The position numbers and the translations under genes were made by a program. The notes under the pieces are model-generated. The model was not told the DNA's origin. It ran no database searches and worked only from the letters and a program-made list of their open reading frames with translations. From the IMG/VR virus record IMGVR_UViG_2541047912_000003: a DNA stretch of 52,958 nucleotides, one strand, 5' to 3'. Numbering within the stretch: position 1 is the first letter of the stretch; each line of letters starts with the position of its first letter. Of this stretch, positions 36,901 through 47,200 are shown in pieces. The stretch comes from a virus. Lineage: Duplodnaviria; Heunggongvirae; Uroviricota; Caudoviricetes.

Positions 36901-37983
36901 ATGAAAAAATTAACAGTGGCAATTTCTGCTGTAGCTGCATCAGTACTGATGGCGATGTCTGCTCAGGCAGCTGAAATTTATAATAAAGACAGTAACAAGC
37001 TGGATCTATACGGGAAAGTTAATGCCAAGCACTACTTCTCCTCTAATGATGCAGATGATGGTGATACTACTTATGCCCGTCTTGGCTTCAAAGGTGAAAC
37101 CCAAATCAACGATCAACTGACTGGTTTCGGTCAGTGGGAATATGAATTCAAAGGCAACCGTGCTGAATCTCAAGGTTCTTCCAAAGACAAAACCCGTCTT
37201 GCATTTGCAGGCCTGAAATTTGGTGATTACGGCTCAATCGATTACGGCCGTAACTACGGTGTAGCATACGACATCGGTGCGTGGACTGACGTCCTGCCAG
37301 AATTCGGTGGTGATACCTGGACCCAAACAGATGTGTTCATGACTGGTCGCACTACTGGTGTTGCAACTTATCGTAACAACGACTTCTTTGGTCTGGTCGA
37401 TGGCCTGAACTTTGCTGCTCAGTATCAGGGTAAAAATGACCGCACTGACGTAACTGAAGCCAATGGTGATGGTTTCGGTTTCTCCACTACTTATGAGTAT
37501 GAAGGATTCGGCGTGGGTGCAACCTATGCTAAATCAGATCGCACTGACGGTCAGGTCGCCTATGGTAAGAGCAAATTCAATGCCTCCGGCAAAAATGCGG
37601 AAGTATGGGCTGCAGGCCTGAAATATGATGCGAACAATATCTATCTGGCTACCACATATTCTGAAACTCAGAATATGACCGTTTTTGGTAATAACCATAT
37701 TGCAAACAAAGCACAAAACTTTGAAGCAGTAGCACAATATCAGTTTGACTTCGGTCTGCGACCATCTGTTGCTTACCTTCAGTCAAAAGGTAAAGACCTT
37801 GGTGTTCATGGTGACCGAGACTTAGTCAAGTATGTCGATGTCGGTGCTACTTACTACTTTAATAAAAACATGTCCACTTTTGTTGATTACAAAATCAACT
37901 TAATTGACGATAGTAAGTTTACCAAAACAGCTGGTATTGATACCGACGACATCGTCGCTGTAGGTCTGGTTTATCAGTTCTAA
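36901..37983 (+). CDS. outer-membrane porin (OmpC/NmpC/Lc family) lysogenic-conversion moron
   Basis: 360 aa, signal peptide [39 protein letters not shown] start and C-terminal VGLVYQF typical of enterobacterial general porins; sits between Q and the holin as nmpC/lc do. Confidence 0.9.
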
Positions 37984-39427: not shown

Positions 39428-39590
39428 GATTCCTCCTTGCTGCCAGTCGCAACCATTTTTTATCAACCAGGCTGGCGGTATATCCGAGCAGTGTTGGTAT
39501 TTCGGAAGGCTTCAGCTCAGGTTTACGCTTACGACGATTTGGTACTCTGTAAATGTGCCCGTTCATGACACGAATAAGCGGTGTAGCCAT
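39420..39590 (-). CDS. ninE: NinE-like small protein (56 aa)
   Basis: Not in the ORF track; hand translation [56 protein letters not shown]; TAATG overlap with ybcN stop and ATGGCTGA overlap with ybcO start. Confidence 0.6.
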   Translation of the reverse strand: MATPLIRVMNGHIYRVPNRRKRKPELKPSEIPTLLGYTASLVDKKWLRLAARRNHG

Positions 39591-40045
39591 TACGCCTCCT
39601 GCTTGTCGCGCAGCAGCTGGAACTCGCAGCTCGGCGGAATAGTCAGGTGGCAGCCAATATTCATCGCCCAGGCTTCAACCTTACACAGGAAGACATACAT
39701 CTCTCCGGTATCAAGATCGGAGGTATGGCGTAACGACTGAATAGTGGTGATTTCACCGGTTACGACATCAACCAGGTCTTTGGTTTCATAACCGAGGTAT
39801 GTGTGTTTGAGAGCATCTTTTACCCATGCTGCAGTAGCGAACGATTTCCCCCTGCTTATGAGGTATTCACTGATTTCGCTGTACCACATGTGGCTAAGTG
39901 CATTCTGGGAAAGACTGCGTCTCTCGCGCCACGGTTTAAGCACCATGCGAAAGCATTTGCCGTCCTCCAGATAAGGCTGGATCTGCTGACCGATAGCGGT
40001 GAAGTTACCGCGATGCAGTTTGATGCCATCTTGTGGTAGGTTCAC
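39590..40045 (-). CDS. ybcN: YbcN-like nin-region protein
   Basis: 151 aa, matches DLP12 YbcN. Confidence 0.8.
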
Positions 40046-40234
40046 GCTTCACCTCCACAGAGGTCAGACGCTGGATGCAAAAAATCGCAGGTGCATTTCT
40101 GCATCTGTGAAGGGAGAAGAGAGTTTGGATTGTATGTGCGCATAAACGTCCCCGTTTAGCGCAGAAGTCACCGGAGTTGTTCAGGCTCCGATGACATGAT
40201 TATGGCGAGTTGATTAGTGAAAATCAAAGGCAGA

Positions 40235-40717
40235 TTAATTTAATAATCCTTGGAGAAATCTCACGCACCATCTCAATAGTTGCGCTTGCTCTTGAGAATC
40301 AACAAAAAGATAAGCGTCTTTATTCCCGTGGAAAAGGTTATTTCTTATCCTTATAACTATCTTTAATACTGTAGACATGGTGTTTAGATCTGTTGCTGCG
40401 TCATTTTGAAGCCCATTAACTATTCCCCGCTTATCTCTCTCTCGACCGAAACAGAGGGCGTCAAGTCTTTCCTGCGCATCCCCGTTCAAAATGTATCTCT
40501 GCTTAAAATCGTGAAAAAGTTCGTTGGGCACCTTTATCCCGGCGTCAAGTAACGTTCGAGCATAATTTAAACTGTCTTCCCCCTTAGCAAAGCCACCAAA
40601 AAAACTTTGCTCGACCCTAGGAAAAATCATGCTGAATTGAAGATAAACATCAATCAGTTCATCAGATGGAGGCTCCGATAAATTAAGTAACCGCTGCAGT
40701 CCTTCTGCACTTATCAT
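40235..40717 (-). CDS. hypothetical protein (160 aa) with C-terminal Rx4H (HEPN-like) motif; nin-region insert
   Basis: [12 protein letters not shown] motif fits the HEPN Rx4-6H signature; not part of the lambda or DLP12 nin sets I recognise. Confidence 0.5.
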
Positions 40718-40972
40718 TTTTCACCTTCCTGCTTAAGATGTCGAGGGGCGGATGCCTTGGGCAGAGCGATGTCTGCTCGCGGTAATGTCGTGGCCGCCCC
40801 AAAAAATAGCCCCGCAAATGCTCAGGCTGCTCACGCATCACCGCTTCGGCAATAACCGGTATATTAAGGCGCTCTTTGTAGGCCACTCAGGAGACAGCAA
40901 GGTCAACGTTAACCTTCTCGCGCTCTTCTTGTGTTTTAGCGGCAATATTCCGCTTCGACATGGCGTTACGTT

Positions 40973-41725
40973 TTACTCCTTTTTGGGTGCATACACGTTG
41001 TTTATCCGTTCAATATGAATAGTTACATCCGGGCTTTCTAAGAATAAGAAGTCAATCAAATGACCAATGAGAATGCAGGCATCATTAATAGAGGACCTTG
41101 TGACTTTAATCCCTCCATGACTGCCGTGATTCCCCAACCACTTTAACGCCATGAATGCATCTTTATTTGGTCCCAGTTTATCTGAATAATTTGTGATTCT
41201 TTCATGCGTAGAAAGACGTATTATCTTGCCTTTAACTGTTTTCTCTCTTGGTACATCAAGACTATCAAGCATCATCTCCAGTATGGTTCTCATGGTGTTC
41301 ACCGCTGAAGCTGGGTGCGAGGGGATCAGAGCTGATACTTCCGCCAAGAGATCAGCTATATCTTCAGGGCACTTTTCAGGAAACAGGAATAGAGGAAGTG
41401 GTGGATAGAAATACTTAGGACGGAAACCAGAAACATACCAACGCTCCGTCATTTCGTCATTGAAGCATTCTACAGCAACAACCTGCCCAGACAAAGCAAC
41501 CTTCTCCTGGCAGGCTTGGCGGGTACAGCGCAGCACGCAACTGAATACTCCTCCCGACATTTCCTCATCAAACCATACTTCATCTCTAAACTGAGTTGTT
41601 GCGCTTGAATCAGTTTCTACAAAACTATCAGCGACAATCTCCAGTGTTTCATTCATACAGTTCGGGCAGCGCCAAGCTGGTGCGTCATTTCGTTTAAACG
41701 TGGCATACAGTAATTTAGGATCCAT
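40973..41725 (-). CDS. hypothetical protein (250 aa) with N-terminal Cys4 zinc-ribbon-like motif; nin-region insert
   Basis: WRCPNCMNE...CVLRCTRQAC Cys pairs at the N-terminus; C-terminal LKWLGNHGSHGG; no lambda counterpart. Confidence 0.5.
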   Translation of the reverse strand: MDPKLLYATFKRNDAPAWRCPNCMNETLEIVADSFVETDSSATTQFRDEVWFDEEMSGGVFSCVLRCTRQACQEKVALSGQVVAVECFNDEMTERWYVSGFRPKYFYPPLPLFLFPEKCPEDIADLLAEVSALIPSHPASAVNTMRTILEMMLDSLDVPREKTVKGKIIRLSTHERITNYSDKLGPNKDAFMALKWLGNHGSHGGIKVTRSSINDACILIGHLIDFLFLESPDVTIHIERINNVYAPKKE

Positions 41726-42013
41726 GTTTTTTTCTCCGTGCTTAACGTTTTTGGTTGCGTTAACACTCTATAGGATTTTGCAGCCTTTACTAGTTCATAC
41801 CCAACCGGTCTTAGTAGGCATATTGAATTACAATCAGCTAATTAAGTTCCTCTACATCGAGGGTATAGTCGCATCAGCAACACGGAACTCGCGCTCAAAT
41901 TCTGCAAGATCCTGCTCAAGTGCAACGTAGTCTTCGCAACACAACCATGACGCCCTCAGCACTCTCTACCACATCGCAATGGCACGAATACCCACACACT
42001 CATAACGTTTCGC

Positions 42014-42307
42014 TCATACCCCTACCCTCCCCCAAAACATCAATACCCGTTTCATCACGGCACTCTGGCGACACTCCTTGAAAATCAGGTTCGTGCTCAC
42101 CTTTCCTTCCCGCTCCTCCCTGGTAGCGAACCGGTAATACACCGTTCGCCAGACCTTGCCATCAATAACTAGAATTCTGGCCCGTGCCATTTTGGCTGCT
42201 ACCTGATTGATGCTGGTTACTGTTGCGCCTGTTACCGCAGCAACGTCCTGCACACAGAAGCTCTTATGCGTTCCCAGGTAATGAATAATTGCTTCTTTTC
42301 CCGTCAT
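42014..42307 (-). CDS. ren: Ren exclusion protein
   Basis: 97 aa, MTGKEAIIHYLGTHKSFCVQDVAAVTGATVTSINQ matches lambda Ren. Confidence 0.9.
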   Translation of the reverse strand: MTGKEAIIHYLGTHKSFCVQDVAAVTGATVTSINQVAAKMARARILVIDGKVWRTVYYRFATREEREGKVSTNLIFKECRQSAVMKRVLMFWGRVGV

Positions 42308-43005
42308 ACACTGGCTCCTTTCAGTCCGAACTTAGCTTTAATTTCTGCGATCTTCGCCAGAGCCTGTGCACGATTTAGAGGTCTACCGCCCATGACAGGA
42401 AGTTGTTTTACTGGTTCAGGTATAGCCTCACCACGGTTAATTCGCGCTGTCATACAGGTCAGTTCATCAGCAGCCTTGCGCCGTAATTCCGCGTCAGTCA
42501 GCGCATTGGCTCGCATGTTCTGGTACAGGTTGGTAACCAGCCAGTAGTGCGCGTTCGATTTCCATGGATAAGACTCTGCGTCCGGATACAGGCCACGCTT
42601 CCGGCAATACTCGTAAACCATATCAACCAGCTCGCTGGCGTTTGGCAGCCCGGCGGTAACGGATGCTTCTTCCCGGCACCAGGCAACAAACTGCCCGGGT
42701 GATGGCAGGAATGGTCGATTCTGCCGACGGGCTACGCGCATTCCTGCGTTAACCTGTTCCATTGTGGTGATCCCGTTTTCCCGGAAAGCCAGCACCCACT
42801 GGCGGCGGATTTCGTTCAGTTCGTTCTGGTCCCGGTTAGCCAGGCTCGCTGGGAAAGTTGCCAGTAACTGGCTGAACACACCATTGATGATCTGCGCTAC
42901 CTGTTGTACCTGCGGCTTTTCGTCGTACTGTTCCGGCATGTTGTTGGCGATCCGACGCATCTGCTCACGGTCAAAGTTAACCATCTGTGCGGCGATGTTT
43001 TTCAT
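42304..43005 (-). CDS. P: replication protein P (helicase loader)
   Basis: 233 aa, matches lambda gpP. Confidence 0.95.
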   Translation of the reverse strand: MKNIAAQMVNFDREQMRRIANNMPEQYDEKPQVQQVAQIINGVFSQLLATFPASLANRDQNELNEIRRQWVLAFRENGITTMEQVNAGMRVARRQNRPFLPSPGQFVAWCREEASVTAGLPNASELVDMVYEYCRKRGLYPDAESYPWKSNAHYWLVTNLYQNMRANALTDAELRRKAADELTCMTARINRGEAIPEPVKQLPVMGGRPLNRAQALAKIAEIKAKFGLKGASV

Positions 43006-43931
43006 AGCTCCACCCCGTAAATCCAGTCAGTGTTCGTCAGGTCGAGTTTTGGTTTGCCGGCTGTCACGCCAGCCTGTTGCTTGTTTCGGTTGATTTCGAG
43101 CTGGGTCCACTTGTCGCGGAGTTTGGCCGGACTCAGCACGTTACCGGACCAGAAGTTGTCCTGGCATGCCCAGCGGAACAGTACACACATGTCGCGGTGG
43201 TTACGTCCGTCACGTTCTCGCATCAGGCGGATATCGTTAGCCCACCCTGCAAAATTCGGTTTTCTGGCTGATGGCGCGATGGTCTTCACCATGTCAAACA
43301 TCCACTCTGCGGCGGTCAGGTCTTCTGCTGTCCCCCACTTGCTGCCGCTCTGAATTGCAGCATCCGGTTTCACCACAGGAAGATCGTTTTCTGGCTGGTC
43401 AGAGGATTCGACAGAATTCTCGGACGAAAAAGGTTTTATATTGTCTTTTGTTAGTTTGTCTTTTGTGTTTACCTGATTCGGGTAAACGTCTTTACCTGAT
43501 TTGGGTAAACTTTTCTTACCTGATTCAGGTAAATTTACCTCTTTCAGGTAAACTTTATTTTTCTTACCTGATTCGGGTAATGTTGACCATTCACTGACCA
43601 CATTATTAATGCCTATATTCCGCCCGCTCTGAATCAAAATCCCACGCTTTACCAGAACACTTTTTGCAGCAGAACACTTGTGCGGCAATATCCCGGTTAA
43701 CTCGGAAAGTTGCTCGTTGCTCACCCAATCCATTTTTTTATTAAAGCCATATGTTTTGCGCATGACAGCCAGGAAGACCAGAAGCTGGTGCTGTGTTAAT
43801 CCGGCCAGCATCACAGCTTCCAGCAACTCATTAGCAATGCGCGTATAACCATCATCGAGATCTGCCACGCGCGGCTCCTTTTGTGCCACATCCGGCACTG
43901 GAAAATTGAATATCTCAGCAGTGTTTGCCAT
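43002..43931 (-). CDS. O: replication initiator O
   Basis: C-terminal half nearly identical to lambda gpO; N-terminal DNA-binding half divergent; start taken at MANTAEIFNF; contains the origin iterons. Confidence 0.9.
   Translation of the reverse strand: MANTAEIFNFPVPDVAQKEPRVADLDDGYTRIANELLEAVMLAGLTQHQLLVFLAVMRKTYGFNKKMDWVSNEQLSELTGILPHKCSAAKSVLVKRGILIQSGRNIGINNVVSEWSTLPESGKKNKVYLKEVNLPESGKKSLPKSGKDVYPNQVNTKDKLTKDNIKPFSSENSVESSDQPENDLPVVKPDAAIQSGSKWGTAEDLTAAEWMFDMVKTIAPSARKPNFAGWANDIRLMRERDGRNHRDMCVLFRWACQDNFWSGNVLSPAKLRDKWTQLEINRNKQQAGVTAGKPKLDLTNTDWIYGVEL
43465..43585. repeat. ori iterons within O (about 5 copies of TTACCTGATTYGGGTAA-like palindromic repeats) with adjacent T-rich region
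   Basis: Repeats at 43468-43581 with T-rich tract at 43441-43467; encode the repeated LPESGKK peptide in O. Confidence 0.8.
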
Positions 43932-44017
43932 AATTCCTCCCGCAATGAGTGCGTTACGATTTGCACCTGAAAGTCGGTTCTGTTCGCGCAGACCGGCTTT
44001 CGCCATTTCCGAACCTG

Positions 44018-44557
44018 TCATATTGCCCCCAGCATGGTGGTGACCATCGCCATCAGTGGACCAGCCAAATCCGGGTCCACACGAAACATCGACACAATGC
44101 CTTCACTCATCTCCTTCAGTTTCTGGTGGCGTGGTGCGTTGAGAATGACAGCCTGTTTTGCCTCACTGAGTTCCTTTTCCATTTCAGCCAGCCGAGCCAT
44201 GAAGCTATCCTGCTCAACCAGGTGGCCGCGATATTCCAGCGGTAGTACCGCCAGAATTGCCGGGGTCAGTTCACGCACGTTATTTCGGTATTTTTCAGAA
44301 TCGAATTTGTTATCGAGGAAGCGGAACAGCTTCTGGCGTGCACGGCTGACATCATCAGGGAAATCGATGGTGCCGCCGCCCTGCTCCCGATACTCATTCA
44401 CAATGAGTGCGGCAACAACATCCTGATTATCTGCAGCCGACCAGGCGCGAACGGCATCACGGATTTTTTCGTGGCCTGGCACCTGTTTTGTTTGAGAACG
44501 ATTTATCACCGCAGTCGGGCTAAATCCGCTAGTCTGTTGGTATGTAAGTGGTTGCAT
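44018..44557 (-). CDS. YdaT-like protein at the cII position (putative CII-type regulator)
   Basis: 179 aa; EYREQGGG and LTPAILAVLPLEYRGHL resemble the Rac YdaT family as I recall it; directly downstream of the cro-like gene. Confidence 0.6.
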   Translation of the reverse strand: MQPLTYQQTSGFSPTAVINRSQTKQVPGHEKIRDAVRAWSAADNQDVVAALIVNEYREQGGGTIDFPDDVSRARQKLFRFLDNKFDSEKYRNNVRELTPAILAVLPLEYRGHLVEQDSFMARLAEMEKELSEAKQAVILNAPRHQKLKEMSEGIVSMFRVDPDLAGPLMAMVTTMLGAI

Positions 44558-44857: not shown

Positions 44858-44961
44858 AACAACCTCCGTGGTTAATTCGAATCAAGATTAAAACTATGGT
44901 TGTTTTTAGTCAACAACCATTTTCGTTTGATAGAATAAAACCTTGGTTGTACATTTGGACT
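44858..44961. promoter_or_regulatory. OR-like operator/promoter region between cro-like and cI genes (AACAACC / GGTTGTT half-site repeats)
   Basis: Four copies of ACAACC/GGTTGT arranged as inverted pairs in 104 bp; the same motif recurs at the OL-like region 47340-47395. Confidence 0.6.
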
Positions 44962-45651
44962 ATGAAAACAACACTCTCAGAAAGACTTAAAGAAGCCAGA
45001 TTAGCGCGAGGCCTTACACAAAAGGCGCTTGGGGATTTGGTCGGGGTTAGCCAAGCTGCTATTCAGAAAATCGAAACAGGGAAAGCTAACCAAACAACTA
45101 AAATCGTGGAGATCGCGAACGCTTTGGGTGTGCGCGCAGAATGGTTATCTTCTGGCGTTGGAAATATGTCAGACAGTACAGTGCAACCAATACCATCAAC
45201 TGTCAGCCATTCCAAATACTTTAAGATTGACGTTCTTGATATAGAAGTGAGTGCCGGGCCGGGAGTCATCAACCGTGAGTTTGTAGAAGTTCTACGCTCG
45301 GTTGAGTACTCGTTTGACGATGCTCGTCACATGTTCGATGGTAGGAAGGCAGAAAATATCCGCATCATTAACGTACGCGGTGACAGCATGTCAGGAACGA
45401 TCGAACCAGGTGATCTGCTGTTCGTTGATATCACGGTTAAATCTTTCGACGGTGATGGCATCTATGCGTTTCTGTACGACGACACCGCCCATGTAAAGCG
45501 CCTGCAAATGATGAAGGATAAGCTGCTGGTTATCTCTGATAACAAGAGCTACTCACCGTGGGACCCGATCGAGAAAGACGAGATGAACCGGGTGTTTATC
45601 TTCGGGAAAGTTATTGGGAGCATGCCGCAGACATACAGAAAGCATGGATGA
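44962..45651 (+). CDS. cI: CI-like repressor (N-terminal XRE HTH plus C-terminal S24 LexA-like peptidase domain)
   Basis: HTH LTQKALGDLVGVSQAAIQKIE; C-terminal VRGDSMSGTIEPGDLLFVD with Ser and downstream Lys (AHVKRL) of the S24 dyad; start may be 44896 or 44962. Confidence 0.85.
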   Translation: MKTTLSERLKEARLARGLTQKALGDLVGVSQAAIQKIETGKANQTTKIVEIANALGVRAEWLSSGVGNMSDSTVQPIPSTVSHSKYFKIDVLDIEVSAGPGVINREFVEVLRSVEYSFDDARHMFDGRKAENIRIINVRGDSMSGTIEPGDLLFVDITVKSFDGDGIYAFLYDDTAHVKRLQMMKDKLLVISDNKSYSPWDPIEKDEMNRVFIFGKVIGSMPQTYRKHG

Positions 45652-45744: not shown

Positions 45745-46770
45745 ATGGTTGATTCTATGAATAGTGAAAATAGCAGCTCTGTAAATAAAAAACATAATAA
45801 ACCTAAACAAGTGAAATTAAGAGCTTTTAAGATAGAAAACAATAATCTAACAGAAAAATCTAGCCCCGCGAAAAAGCTTTTATTACAAAAGCTAGTTGAC
45901 TCATCTACCGTAAAAGAACGTTGCATGGTTTTAAACTCTGACGATCTTAGGCAAGAACAAGATTTGATATCGTTCTATCAGACATCAGACAACAGTAATT
46001 CTGTTTTTTGTACAATGGTTAGAATTGCCCCAAGCGAGGGAGTTGAAAAGATTCCCGATCAACTTTTTAACAAAAAATCATTTACAATTAGTGATCTCCA
46101 TAATGCTGACATTGATACAGAGGTCGTATGCAAAAACCATTTCTACTTCTGTATAAGTGATAATTATTTAGTTACCAATCTGCAGATGAATAGGACTATA
46201 TCATCTCTACAAACTTATATACGCTGGCTGGTTGGGAATGAAATGATTGAATTCACACCGATGATTGTTAAAGGTAATAAAGTTCAGCTTAAGGATATAA
46301 AATCAATTTCTGTGAGAGATCCATCTCCTCTTCCAAAAGAAGTATTGGTTCAGTCATCCGATATGAAATCGCCACCATCAGAAATTGAAGAAAAAAATAC
46401 AAAAATAAAACTTTCACACGCTGTTTTAAATGCATTGAAATCAGCTGTACCAAATTTCCCAAATCTAAAAGAAATAATTGACAATCAAATAGTATCAGCT
46501 GAACTGTTAATAAAGTTTAGTAAACCAAGGAGCATGGATGAAGATAGTTATGCTAAACTATTAGGTGCAACATTAAAACCTGTTAGTGATCTTGATAACA
46601 TTGTATTCAAACGAAGTGATGGTCGCTCAGAAATAAAAGGCAAAGATCTTCTTAAGATTAAAAATGTAACAATTGAGGTTACTGATTCAGGCAAGCTTGT
46701 AGAACAAGAGGTATTTCAAGAAATGAGCAGATATTTAAAAGAGATAGAAAATGAAGCGACAAATAGCTAG
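45745..46770 (+). CDS. hypothetical AT-rich protein (341 aa) at the rexA position; candidate abortive-infection sensor
   Basis: Same strand as and immediately downstream of cI; AT-rich; no detectable similarity to lambda RexA by eye, only positional and architectural analogy. Confidence 0.55.
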   Translation: MVDSMNSENSSSVNKKHNKPKQVKLRAFKIENNNLTEKSSPAKKLLLQKLVDSSTVKERCMVLNSDDLRQEQDLISFYQTSDNSNSVFCTMVRIAPSEGVEKIPDQLFNKKSFTISDLHNADIDTEVVCKNHFYFCISDNYLVTNLQMNRTISSLQTYIRWLVGNEMIEFTPMIVKGNKVQLKDIKSISVRDPSPLPKEVLVQSSDMKSPPSEIEEKNTKIKLSHAVLNALKSAVPNFPNLKEIIDNQIVSAELLIKFSKPRSMDEDSYAKLLGATLKPVSDLDNIVFKRSDGRSEIKGKDLLKIKNVTIEVTDSGKLVEQEVFQEMSRYLKEIENEATNS

Positions 46771-47200
46771 CTTGCTAATTGTTCTGATAATTACTATCGG
46801 GCTTCCATCATTTTTAGCTTGGAGGCCTGATCAGTTTTTGATTTCTACATTGTATTCTGTCTGTGGCATAATGTTTTCTATCGGGTTAGGGTTGATTGTA
46901 ACTTTTAACATGTCTGGCATTAAAAACATTAATTATGTTAAAGTTATCAGAAAAGAATTGGTATCTATACGAAATTCTTTTTTGCGCTTTTTCACTCTTT
47001 CTACTTTATGCCTTGTGCTTAGTGAATATTTAAAAGAGTATGAGTTCAGCTTTGAATTTAAATCCCTGATACTAAAATTCTCTCCTTCAATACTTTTTTT
47101 CACATTAATAATTTACGCAATTGTCTTCTTCATAGTAAATTTCCTAAATGTGCAAAAATTAAGTCATGATATCTTCGATAAGATCAATCAAGAACAATAA
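46751..47200 (+). CDS. hypothetical 4-TM membrane protein (149 aa) at the rexB position
   Basis: Four hydrophobic segments; start overlaps the upstream gene by 20 nt; followed by an intrinsic terminator. Confidence 0.55.
   Translation: MKRQIASLLIVLIITIGLPSFLAWRPDQFLISTLYSVCGIMFSIGLGLIVTFNMSGIKNINYVKVIRKELVSIRNSFLRFFTLSTLCLVLSEYLKEYEFSFEFKSLILKFSPSILFFTLIIYAIVFFIVNFLNVQKLSHDIFDKINQEQ

Follow-up and report, generated by a model that had tools for sequence, protein, structure and literature searches.

Does the ren-ybcN interval of a lambdoid prophage hold one defence module or several unrelated passengers? We addressed this question at a locus in a 52,958-nucleotide stretch of viral DNA (Caudoviricetes; IMG/VR record IMGVR_UViG_2541047912_000003), hereafter the window, in which two minus-strand open reading frames (ORFs) encode proteins of 250 and 160 amino acids. 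An initial annotation, made from the sequence alone, had treated them as a single insert between ren and ybcN and had suggested a toxin-antitoxin or abortive-infection RNase pair. The ORFs, their outer coordinates (40235 and 41725), and their placement are exactly as annotated. Our analyses partly support the flavour of that reading and find its architecture wrong. We judge, with modest confidence, that the ren-ybcN interval is a moron slot of a decaying DLP12-like prophage and is occupied by three independent elements: a cassette resembling the RAZR defence system, a dead theta gene, and an RNase-like protein, which we call X (the 160-amino-acid ORF).

The gap of about 255 bp between the two ORFs had been described as non-coding. 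It holds an inactivated gene for a homolog of the DNA polymerase III theta subunit (holE/hot-like), whose frame matches Pfam DNA_pol3_theta (PF06440; 56.7 bits versus a cutoff of 34.6, E = 2e-15) and starts 11 nucleotides after the stop codon of the 250-amino-acid gene. Three-frame translation and alignment revealed an in-frame TGA (40887-40889) and a one-nucleotide deletion near 40771/40772, and RefSeq labels the gene 'frameshifted; internal stop'. The nonsense codon is common to the window and Escherichia coli IAI1, and the frameshift is an addition of the window lineage. Intact copies (77-84 amino acids) lie directly 5' of X in Salmonella and Klebsiella prophages, where the theta TGA and the X ATG overlap by four nucleotides (ATGA) in both genera. 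In Enterobacter, theta is truncated by a premature stop, with X downstream, and in E. coli OkiPb01694 it is truncated at the N-terminus. X is intact in every lineage in which theta has decayed. Because theta decays while X stays under purifying selection (ratio of nonsynonymous to synonymous substitution rates, dN/dS, 0.10-0.16), theta is evidently not obligatory for X. These comparisons mark it as a dead bystander, a common nin-region gene that has decayed independently in several lineages. It resembles HolE and P1 Hot in its Pfam match but differs from them in being a pseudogene here and dispensable for the retention of X.

The two ORFs also have separate histories. Their G+C content is low (40.6% for the 250-amino-acid gene and 43.6% for X, versus 51-54% in the flanks) and homology breaks off at the cassette edges (blastn), which bears out the earlier view that this cargo, RNase- or defence-like in flavour, was acquired independently. 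Inside the insert, homology blocks delimited by blastn of the window against comparison loci L002, L004-L007, L025, and L026 break at about 40954, between the 250-amino-acid gene (the DUF4145 gene, after its C-terminal domain) and theta plus X. In Salmonella, Klebsiella, and Enterobacter prophages (L002-L007), X accompanies a theta gene, whether intact or truncated, and never adjoins a DUF4145 gene; two E. coli strains (L025 and L026) likewise have X with no DUF4145 neighbour. DUF4145 homologs without X were found at four loci (L051-L054). Among 5426 complete E. coli genomes, X is present in 55, the DUF4145 gene in 51, and both in 46. Across its 51 carriers the DUF4145 gene keeps at least 99% identity, and X exists as two alleles (95-100% identity); between the window and IAI1, X has 8 differences and the DUF4145 gene none. 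Since theta intervenes, each gene occurs without the other, and the allele histories differ, the sequences indicate that the two genes were acquired separately and form no conserved pair.

The first element is a cassette of about 1.04 kb that consists of a 288-bp leader and a single gene with a zinc-finger, linker, and DUF4145 arrangement. The leader was found only together with the DUF4145 gene, in 47 E. coli genomes whose copies are all at least 99% identical, and blastn did not detect it in other enterobacterial loci. In the encoded protein, five cysteines (C20-x2-C23 and C63-x3-C67-x4-C72) are invariant among 14 homologs down to 32% identity, so the zinc-ribbon-like motif first noticed at the N-terminus is real. 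The conserved linker YFYPPLPLF joins this Cys-rich domain to a C-terminal domain that matches PF13643 (DUF4145; residues 132-216, E = 7.9e-12, 45.5 bits versus a gathering cutoff of 23.1), a match carried by all 14 homologs. DUF4145 belongs to the HEPN superfamily, and zinc ribbons are among its recorded fusion partners (Anantharaman et al. 2013, PMC3710099). The AlphaFold2 (AF2) model (predicted local distance difference test score, pLDDT, 87) has a beta-rich N-domain (about residues 1-110) and a helical C-domain with the four-helix HEPN fold. A Foldseek search of the model against the PDB returned noise only. PDB sequence searches with our profiles (A1, A2, and A3) gave nothing meaningful, and neither approach recovered any solved RAZR chain. 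Scans of both proteins against Pfam, NCBIfam, and PADLOC gave DUF4145 of the 250-amino-acid protein as the sole match. This gene is also under purifying selection (dN/dS = 0.12 against the Serratia homolog).

The comparison that places this protein runs through the PD-T7-4 defence system (also Vassallo et al. 2022). The system is RAZR, the ring-activated zinc-finger RNase of E. coli, in which a zinc-finger domain and a conserved linker precede a DUF4145 HEPN domain (Zhang et al., Nature 2026, PMC13017515). RAZR becomes active on assembling around rings formed by phage proteins, after which it cuts RNA without specificity; its R146 and H154 are catalytic and required for defence (PMC13017515). 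The window protein shares the single-gene format, the presence on mobile elements, and the order of N-terminal Cys-rich zinc finger (zinc binding is predicted here), linker, and C-terminal DUF4145. It also shares the spacing of a basic residue, seven residues, and a histidine inside xLGNxxxH. K195, G198, N199, S202, and H203 are invariant in the 14 homologs, and K195 and H203 occupy the positions of the R-x7-H pair.

The bridge between the two is a 229-amino-acid protein from a Bacteroidetes contig (locus L029), which served as a positive control by matching the PADLOC model PDLC04109 (PD-T7-4) at E = 3.3e-11. The profile of the 250-amino-acid family (A2) detects this protein at E = 2e-7. In the pairwise alignment (25% identity over 146 residues), YFYPPLPLF aligns with YLFPSI and LKWLGNHGSH with IRLLGNKGAH, which sets the lysine against the arginine of the RAZR homolog. 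The profile match to a PD-T7-4-positive protein, together with the motif and linker alignment, identifies the window protein, by sequence, as a distant RAZR relative with an enlarged N-domain and a Lys195 variant of the active site. The differences are substantial: the N-domain has about 110 residues, is beta-rich, and follows the pattern CxxC...Cx3Cx4C, whereas the RAZR zinc-finger domain has about 65 residues; and lysine stands in place of the catalytic arginine.

Homologs of this protein are found in settings outside the ren-nin slot. A 70%-identical homolog in a P2-like prophage of Serratia marcescens (L051, 4001-6813) lies between baseplate/spike and tail genes and adjoins a Septu pair (PtuA, E = 2e-148; PtuB, E = 2e-93), a setting that looks like a P2-type defence hotspot. 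Other homologs without X stand after an integrase in Pantoea and near ImuB/SRAP genes in Serratia plymuthica. A second DUF4145 protein with an experimental anti-phage effect is BxaP, a BREX-associated protein that mediates abortive-infection-type defence against T4 (PMC10799925). BxaP is likewise a single HEPN protein but differs in its N-terminal DUF4145 and HEAT-like C-terminal region, its lack of a zinc finger, and its genomic context. The experiments on BxaP and RAZR (PMC10799925, PMC13017515) show that solo DUF4145 proteins can be defence effectors of the abortive-infection type. The cassette most likely encodes a sensor-RNase of the RAZR kind in one protein: the variable Cys-rich N-domain would sense an assembly of phage protein, sensing would reposition or oligomerise the HEPN domains into an active RNase, and cleavage of RNA would abort infection by a competing phage.

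Protein X is the third element and is preceded by its own Shine-Dalgarno sequence (GAAGGTGA). The initial annotation had singled out an Rx4H motif near its C-terminus as an RNase signature. An Rx4-6H by itself says little, being present in 44 of the 96 window ORFs of at least 100 amino acids; R[NDH]x3HG is present in X alone. The weight of the motif lies in its invariance across the family: 66 relatives (alignment A3) share R123, R125, N127, H130, and K133 without exception, and a further 150 (A6) all share RxRNNxxHGxK, giving 216 aligned relatives in total. E36 and R74 are also invariant in A3, and E36 is invariant or nearly so overall. The motif is thus real, and the membership in HEPN that had been read into it was not confirmed by profiles or fold search.

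An exhaustive HMMER search found 172 cluster representatives of the X family (50% identity, E <= 1e-3), almost all of them stand-alone proteins of 155-185 amino acids. A word-indexed search found 262 clusters at the 90% level, all named 'hypothetical' and none with a Pfam domain. The family ranges over Proteobacteria, Bacteroidota, Planctomycetota, Acidobacteriota, and a Nitrososphaeraceae archaeon; its close homologs (75-81% identity) are confined to Enterobacteriaceae, and tblastn found no match among 50,697 isolated phage genomes.

In the AF2 model of X, which was built from eight close sequences and in which one of five models was confident, a helix at 110-130 carries the motif at its C-terminal end and is followed by a loop (131-140) and a helix (141-159). 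As in HEPN motifs (PMC3710099), a polar residue follows the arginine, the motif closes the penultimate helix, and a conserved glutamate lies upstream. Profile evidence is sparse. Sub-threshold HEPN-family hits were obtained for six of the 66 A3 members (two to HEPN_RiboL-PSP, best E = 1e-4; two to DUF3644; one each to DUF4209 and SWT1), and a PADLOC scan of the same members gave weak, scattered hits, including CARF_HEPN and Csx1 at E = 0.01-0.02. Neither the 150 further members, nor 18 individual members, nor two family consensus sequences showed a HEPN link in Pfam, and a PDB profile search with the family had no hit. Fold similarity of the eight-sequence model to HEPN structures was at noise level. 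Alignment of the X and DUF4145 families by hhalign indicated no relation (probability 0.2%), the X profile found nothing in a RiboL-PSP-HEPN-like neighbour protein at locus L053, and a literature search by protein accessions and DUF8608 found nothing. Assignment of X to HEPN is therefore plausible but unproven.

Small solo HEPN families offer the nearest comparison: the integron-cassette HEPN with PDB 3jrt, the RiboL-PSP-HEPN/AbiD-AbiF clade, and ApeA (PMC3710099). X resembles them in its all-helical predicted model, in an R-N-x3-H-G that ends the penultimate helix, and in the invariant upstream glutamate; it differs in lacking a significant profile or PDB-sequence match and in RxRNNxxHGxK, which is specific to its own family. 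Membership in the integron-cassette (3jrt) or APECO1_4465 families was considered and rejected, as there was no sequence hit and the architectures differ (PMC3710099).

Genomic context is the best functional clue for X, and across 31 loci we found no conserved partner gene. Relatives follow hsdR directly with a four-nucleotide overlap at two loci (L008 and L013). In the Bacteroidetes island mentioned above (a metagenome-assembled genome, contig k141_47384; L029, 3115-4510), a type I restriction-modification (R-M) system reads HsdM, HsdS, the 229-amino-acid RAZR homolog, a 169-amino-acid X member, GmrSD, and HsdR. Here a zinc-finger DUF4145 gene lies directly upstream of an X gene, a second and phylogenetically remote case. 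Another relative (L030) has DUF645, DUF3709, and CcdAB genes for company in a cassette array of Vibrio cholerae that looks like the superintegron. Relatives of 29-33% identity stand alone in further prophages, and in two cases immediately precede a true NinB. R-M operons, cassette arrays, and prophages are also the contexts listed for small solo HEPN proteins (PMC3710099). Most probably, X is a minimal, metal-independent RNase of a HEPN-like kind, acting as a solo, self-contained conflict or defence effector with no dedicated antitoxin. We hold it possible, if doubtful, that X represents an undescribed, wide family of minimal solo RNases that act as antitoxin-less phage-defence or conflict effectors and that the two remote cases of X after a zinc-finger DUF4145 gene reflect functional cooperation of two RNase types rather than chance.

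The slot itself has alternative contents. In E. coli A3024 (L025, 4268-5901) and OkiPb01694 (L026), a cassette of NADAR and PRTase-CE genes replaces ren and the DUF4145 gene beside the theta remnant and X; these genes gave weak PADLOC hits (PDC-M42C and PRTase_III-A), and their cassette is an alternative defence-like cassette of the slot. In an Enterobacter mori prophage (L007, 6875-8776), X is followed immediately by a gene for a 633-amino-acid NACHT protein and by a DinI homolog, which replace ninB; the NACHT protein may add another piece of STAND-type defence cargo to the nin region. We take the corresponding slot of DLP12 in K-12 to contain emrE, ybcK, ybcL, and ybcM. The lambdoid slot thus holds, at the same position, ren with the DUF4145 gene, NADAR with PRTase-CE, or NACHT beside X. 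The defence hotspots of P2 and P4 provide a comparison for this cargo (PMC9122126), and the papers found in our search gave no formal description of the ren-nin slot as a defence hotspot.

Several observations tell against a slot of three independent elements with two RNase-type effectors. The activity of both proteins is predicted only. No canonical R.{4,6}H exists anywhere in the 250-amino-acid protein, its K195 replaces the arginine whose alanine substitution abolishes RAZR defence, and the PADLOC PD-T7-4 model does not match it at E <= 1. Both genes have the orientation of the PR early-right operon, and a scan for promoters and terminators stayed at the level of shuffled sequence, with none above chance. 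In E. coli, 46 of about 55 carriers hold both genes, and the Bacteroidetes island again has a RAZR homolog directly upstream of an X homolog.

Among the alternatives, a role of one or both genes in the phage's own cycle, with expression from PR together with the nin genes in lytic growth for takeover of host RNA or for counter-defence, is rather unlikely. The strand and position are those of the delayed-early nin operon, diverged prophages carry X at this nin position too, and lysogen expression is unproven because no promoter or terminator signal exceeds chance. Nevertheless, both genes have relatives outside phages as well, in R-M islands, in a cassette array, and beside an integrase, and RAZR, the closest characterised relative of the 250-amino-acid protein, is a host-protective defence with its own promoter (PMC13017515). 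E. coli chromosomes such as that of SCU-484 match the locus region at 100% identity; in the SCU-484 prophage, holin, DUF1327, and rzpD are pseudogenes, and both ORFs have stayed intact beside these lysis-gene pseudogenes. The 288-bp leader, which had been reported as non-coding, may carry a promoter of its own for the DUF4145 gene. The downstream spacer had been described in the same way; its 189 bp are conserved lambdoid sequence that includes an annotated 33-amino-acid ORF. A search of the spacers for a type III (RNA) antitoxin or small RNA found no tandem repeats, Rfam match, or notable inverted repeats.

That the 250-amino-acid protein is a catalytically inactive HEPN, working as a zinc-finger nucleic-acid-binding or regulatory protein, is distinctly unlikely. 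The substitution of the catalytic arginine extends across the subfamily, the canonical motif is absent in about 20% of DUF4145 members (PMC3710099), and homologs are labelled 'DNA binding protein' (PHROG 1305 and phage SEN8), although these labels are annotations only. The strict invariance of K195, G198, N199, S202, and H203 is what would be expected of a retained active site; the histidine is kept, lysine preserves the charge, and a homolog adjoins Septu in a defence hotspot. Because Lys195 is invariant across the subfamily, we interpret the substitution as suggesting a site that is retained but altered rather than decayed.

The pair proposed originally, as one two-gene toxin-antitoxin or abortive-infection module or, in a softer variant, as two cooperating HEPN-type subunits, is very unlikely. 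Linkage in the 46 E. coli genomes, the tight same-strand packing (an 11-nucleotide spacer and an overlap through theta), and the remote R-M island with a PD-T7-4/RAZR homolog directly 5' of X would all fit it. The third gene in between, the differing allele histories, and the 250-amino-acid homologs found without X do not, and X lacks a DUF4145 neighbour in the Salmonella, Klebsiella, and Enterobacter prophages, in two E. coli strains, and at 30 of 31 more distant loci. DUF4145 genes are, moreover, common in R-M islands anyway (PMC3710099). Least probable of all is a tie of X to the replisome, in which it would assist or modulate theta, Pol III, or Pol I instead of acting as a conflict RNase: the four-nucleotide theta-X junction is conserved across three genera, X homologs overlap the polA (DNA polymerase I) stop codon by four nucleotides or abut the end of polA in two Rhodobacterales genomes (L010, 1897-5309, and L016, 2033-5423, respectively), and theta lies 265 bp downstream of a 29%-identical X at one locus (L140), but theta decays in three lineages while X remains intact under purifying selection, X was present in none of 80 prophage theta loci in IMG/VR (where what follows theta varies greatly), both theta and polA are missing from the neighbourhood of most X relatives, and the order at L140 is reversed and uncoupled.

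The features of the locus are collected in Table 1. Three further observations concern the surrounding prophage. The 33-amino-acid ORF is annotated in phage 82 as orf33, with promoter-like features, and many lambdoid phages share the surrounding 185 bp at 92-96% conservation. The porin gene lies beside a decayed lysis region, the decay being seen in the identical strain SCU-484, and this is the arrangement of DLP12. On the plus strand, a cI-like HTH/S24 (helix-turn-helix) repressor gene (44896-45651) is followed by co-oriented ORFs of 341 and 149 amino acids (45745-46770 and 46751-47200) at the position of lambda rexAB. These two ORFs had no Pfam or PADLOC match and may form another uncharacterised module expressed in the lysogen.

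Table 1 Features of the ren-ybcN interval and its surroundings in the window.
Feature	Position	Strand	Basis or remark
O	43002-44021	-	Gene order of a DLP12-like lambdoid prophage
P	42304-43005	-	Gene order of a DLP12-like lambdoid prophage
ren	42014-42307	-	85% identical to lambda Ren
288-bp leader of the DUF4145 cassette	41726-42013	-	Possible own promoter
DUF4145 cassette, outside the theta + X block	about 40955-42013	-	blastn
250-amino-acid zinc-finger DUF4145 ORF	40973-41725	-	ORF list and PF13643 match
Cys-rich beta N-domain, about residues 1-110	41396-41725	-	250-amino-acid protein
DUF4145 (HEPN) C-domain, about residues 121-245	40991-41365	-	250-amino-acid protein
K195-W-L-G-N-H-G-S-H203, active-site-equivalent motif	41117-41143	-	Lys at the catalytic Arg position
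theta (holE/P1 hot-like) pseudogene	40714-40961	-	PF06440, three-frame translation, RefSeq, alignment
theta + X homology block	40163-40954	-	blastn; common to Salmonella, Klebsiella, and Enterobacter prophages
160-amino-acid ORF, protein X	40235-40717	-	ORF; PHROG 27260, function unknown
R123-I-R125-N-N127-L-F-H130-G-N-K133, X-family signature	40319-40351	-	HEPN-like R-N-x3-H
33-amino-acid ORF overlapping the ybcN start	40042-40143	-	RefSeq annotation; also phage 82 orf33
ybcN	39590-40045	-	Followed by ninE, ybcO, rusA, ylcG, quuD
OmpC/NmpC-like porin gene	36901-37983	+	After quuD, between the Q antiterminator gene and the lysis region

If both proteins are inactive, the interval would hold ordinary prophage cargo and a pseudogene. 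As it stands, the locus yields two testable single-gene candidates and a hotspot, with no new principle yet, and the ren-ninB junction of lambdoid prophages is a cargo hotspot worth mining. Should X prove to be an RNase or a defence effector, the HEPN and defence catalogue would gain a widespread family that Pfam, NCBIfam, and PADLOC miss. If the 250-amino-acid protein is active, the RAZR type of sensor-RNase would extend to a larger zinc-finger sensor with lysine at the position of the catalytic arginine, and such an active variant would bear on how HEPN chemistry tolerates substitution and on how their trigger specificity diversifies.

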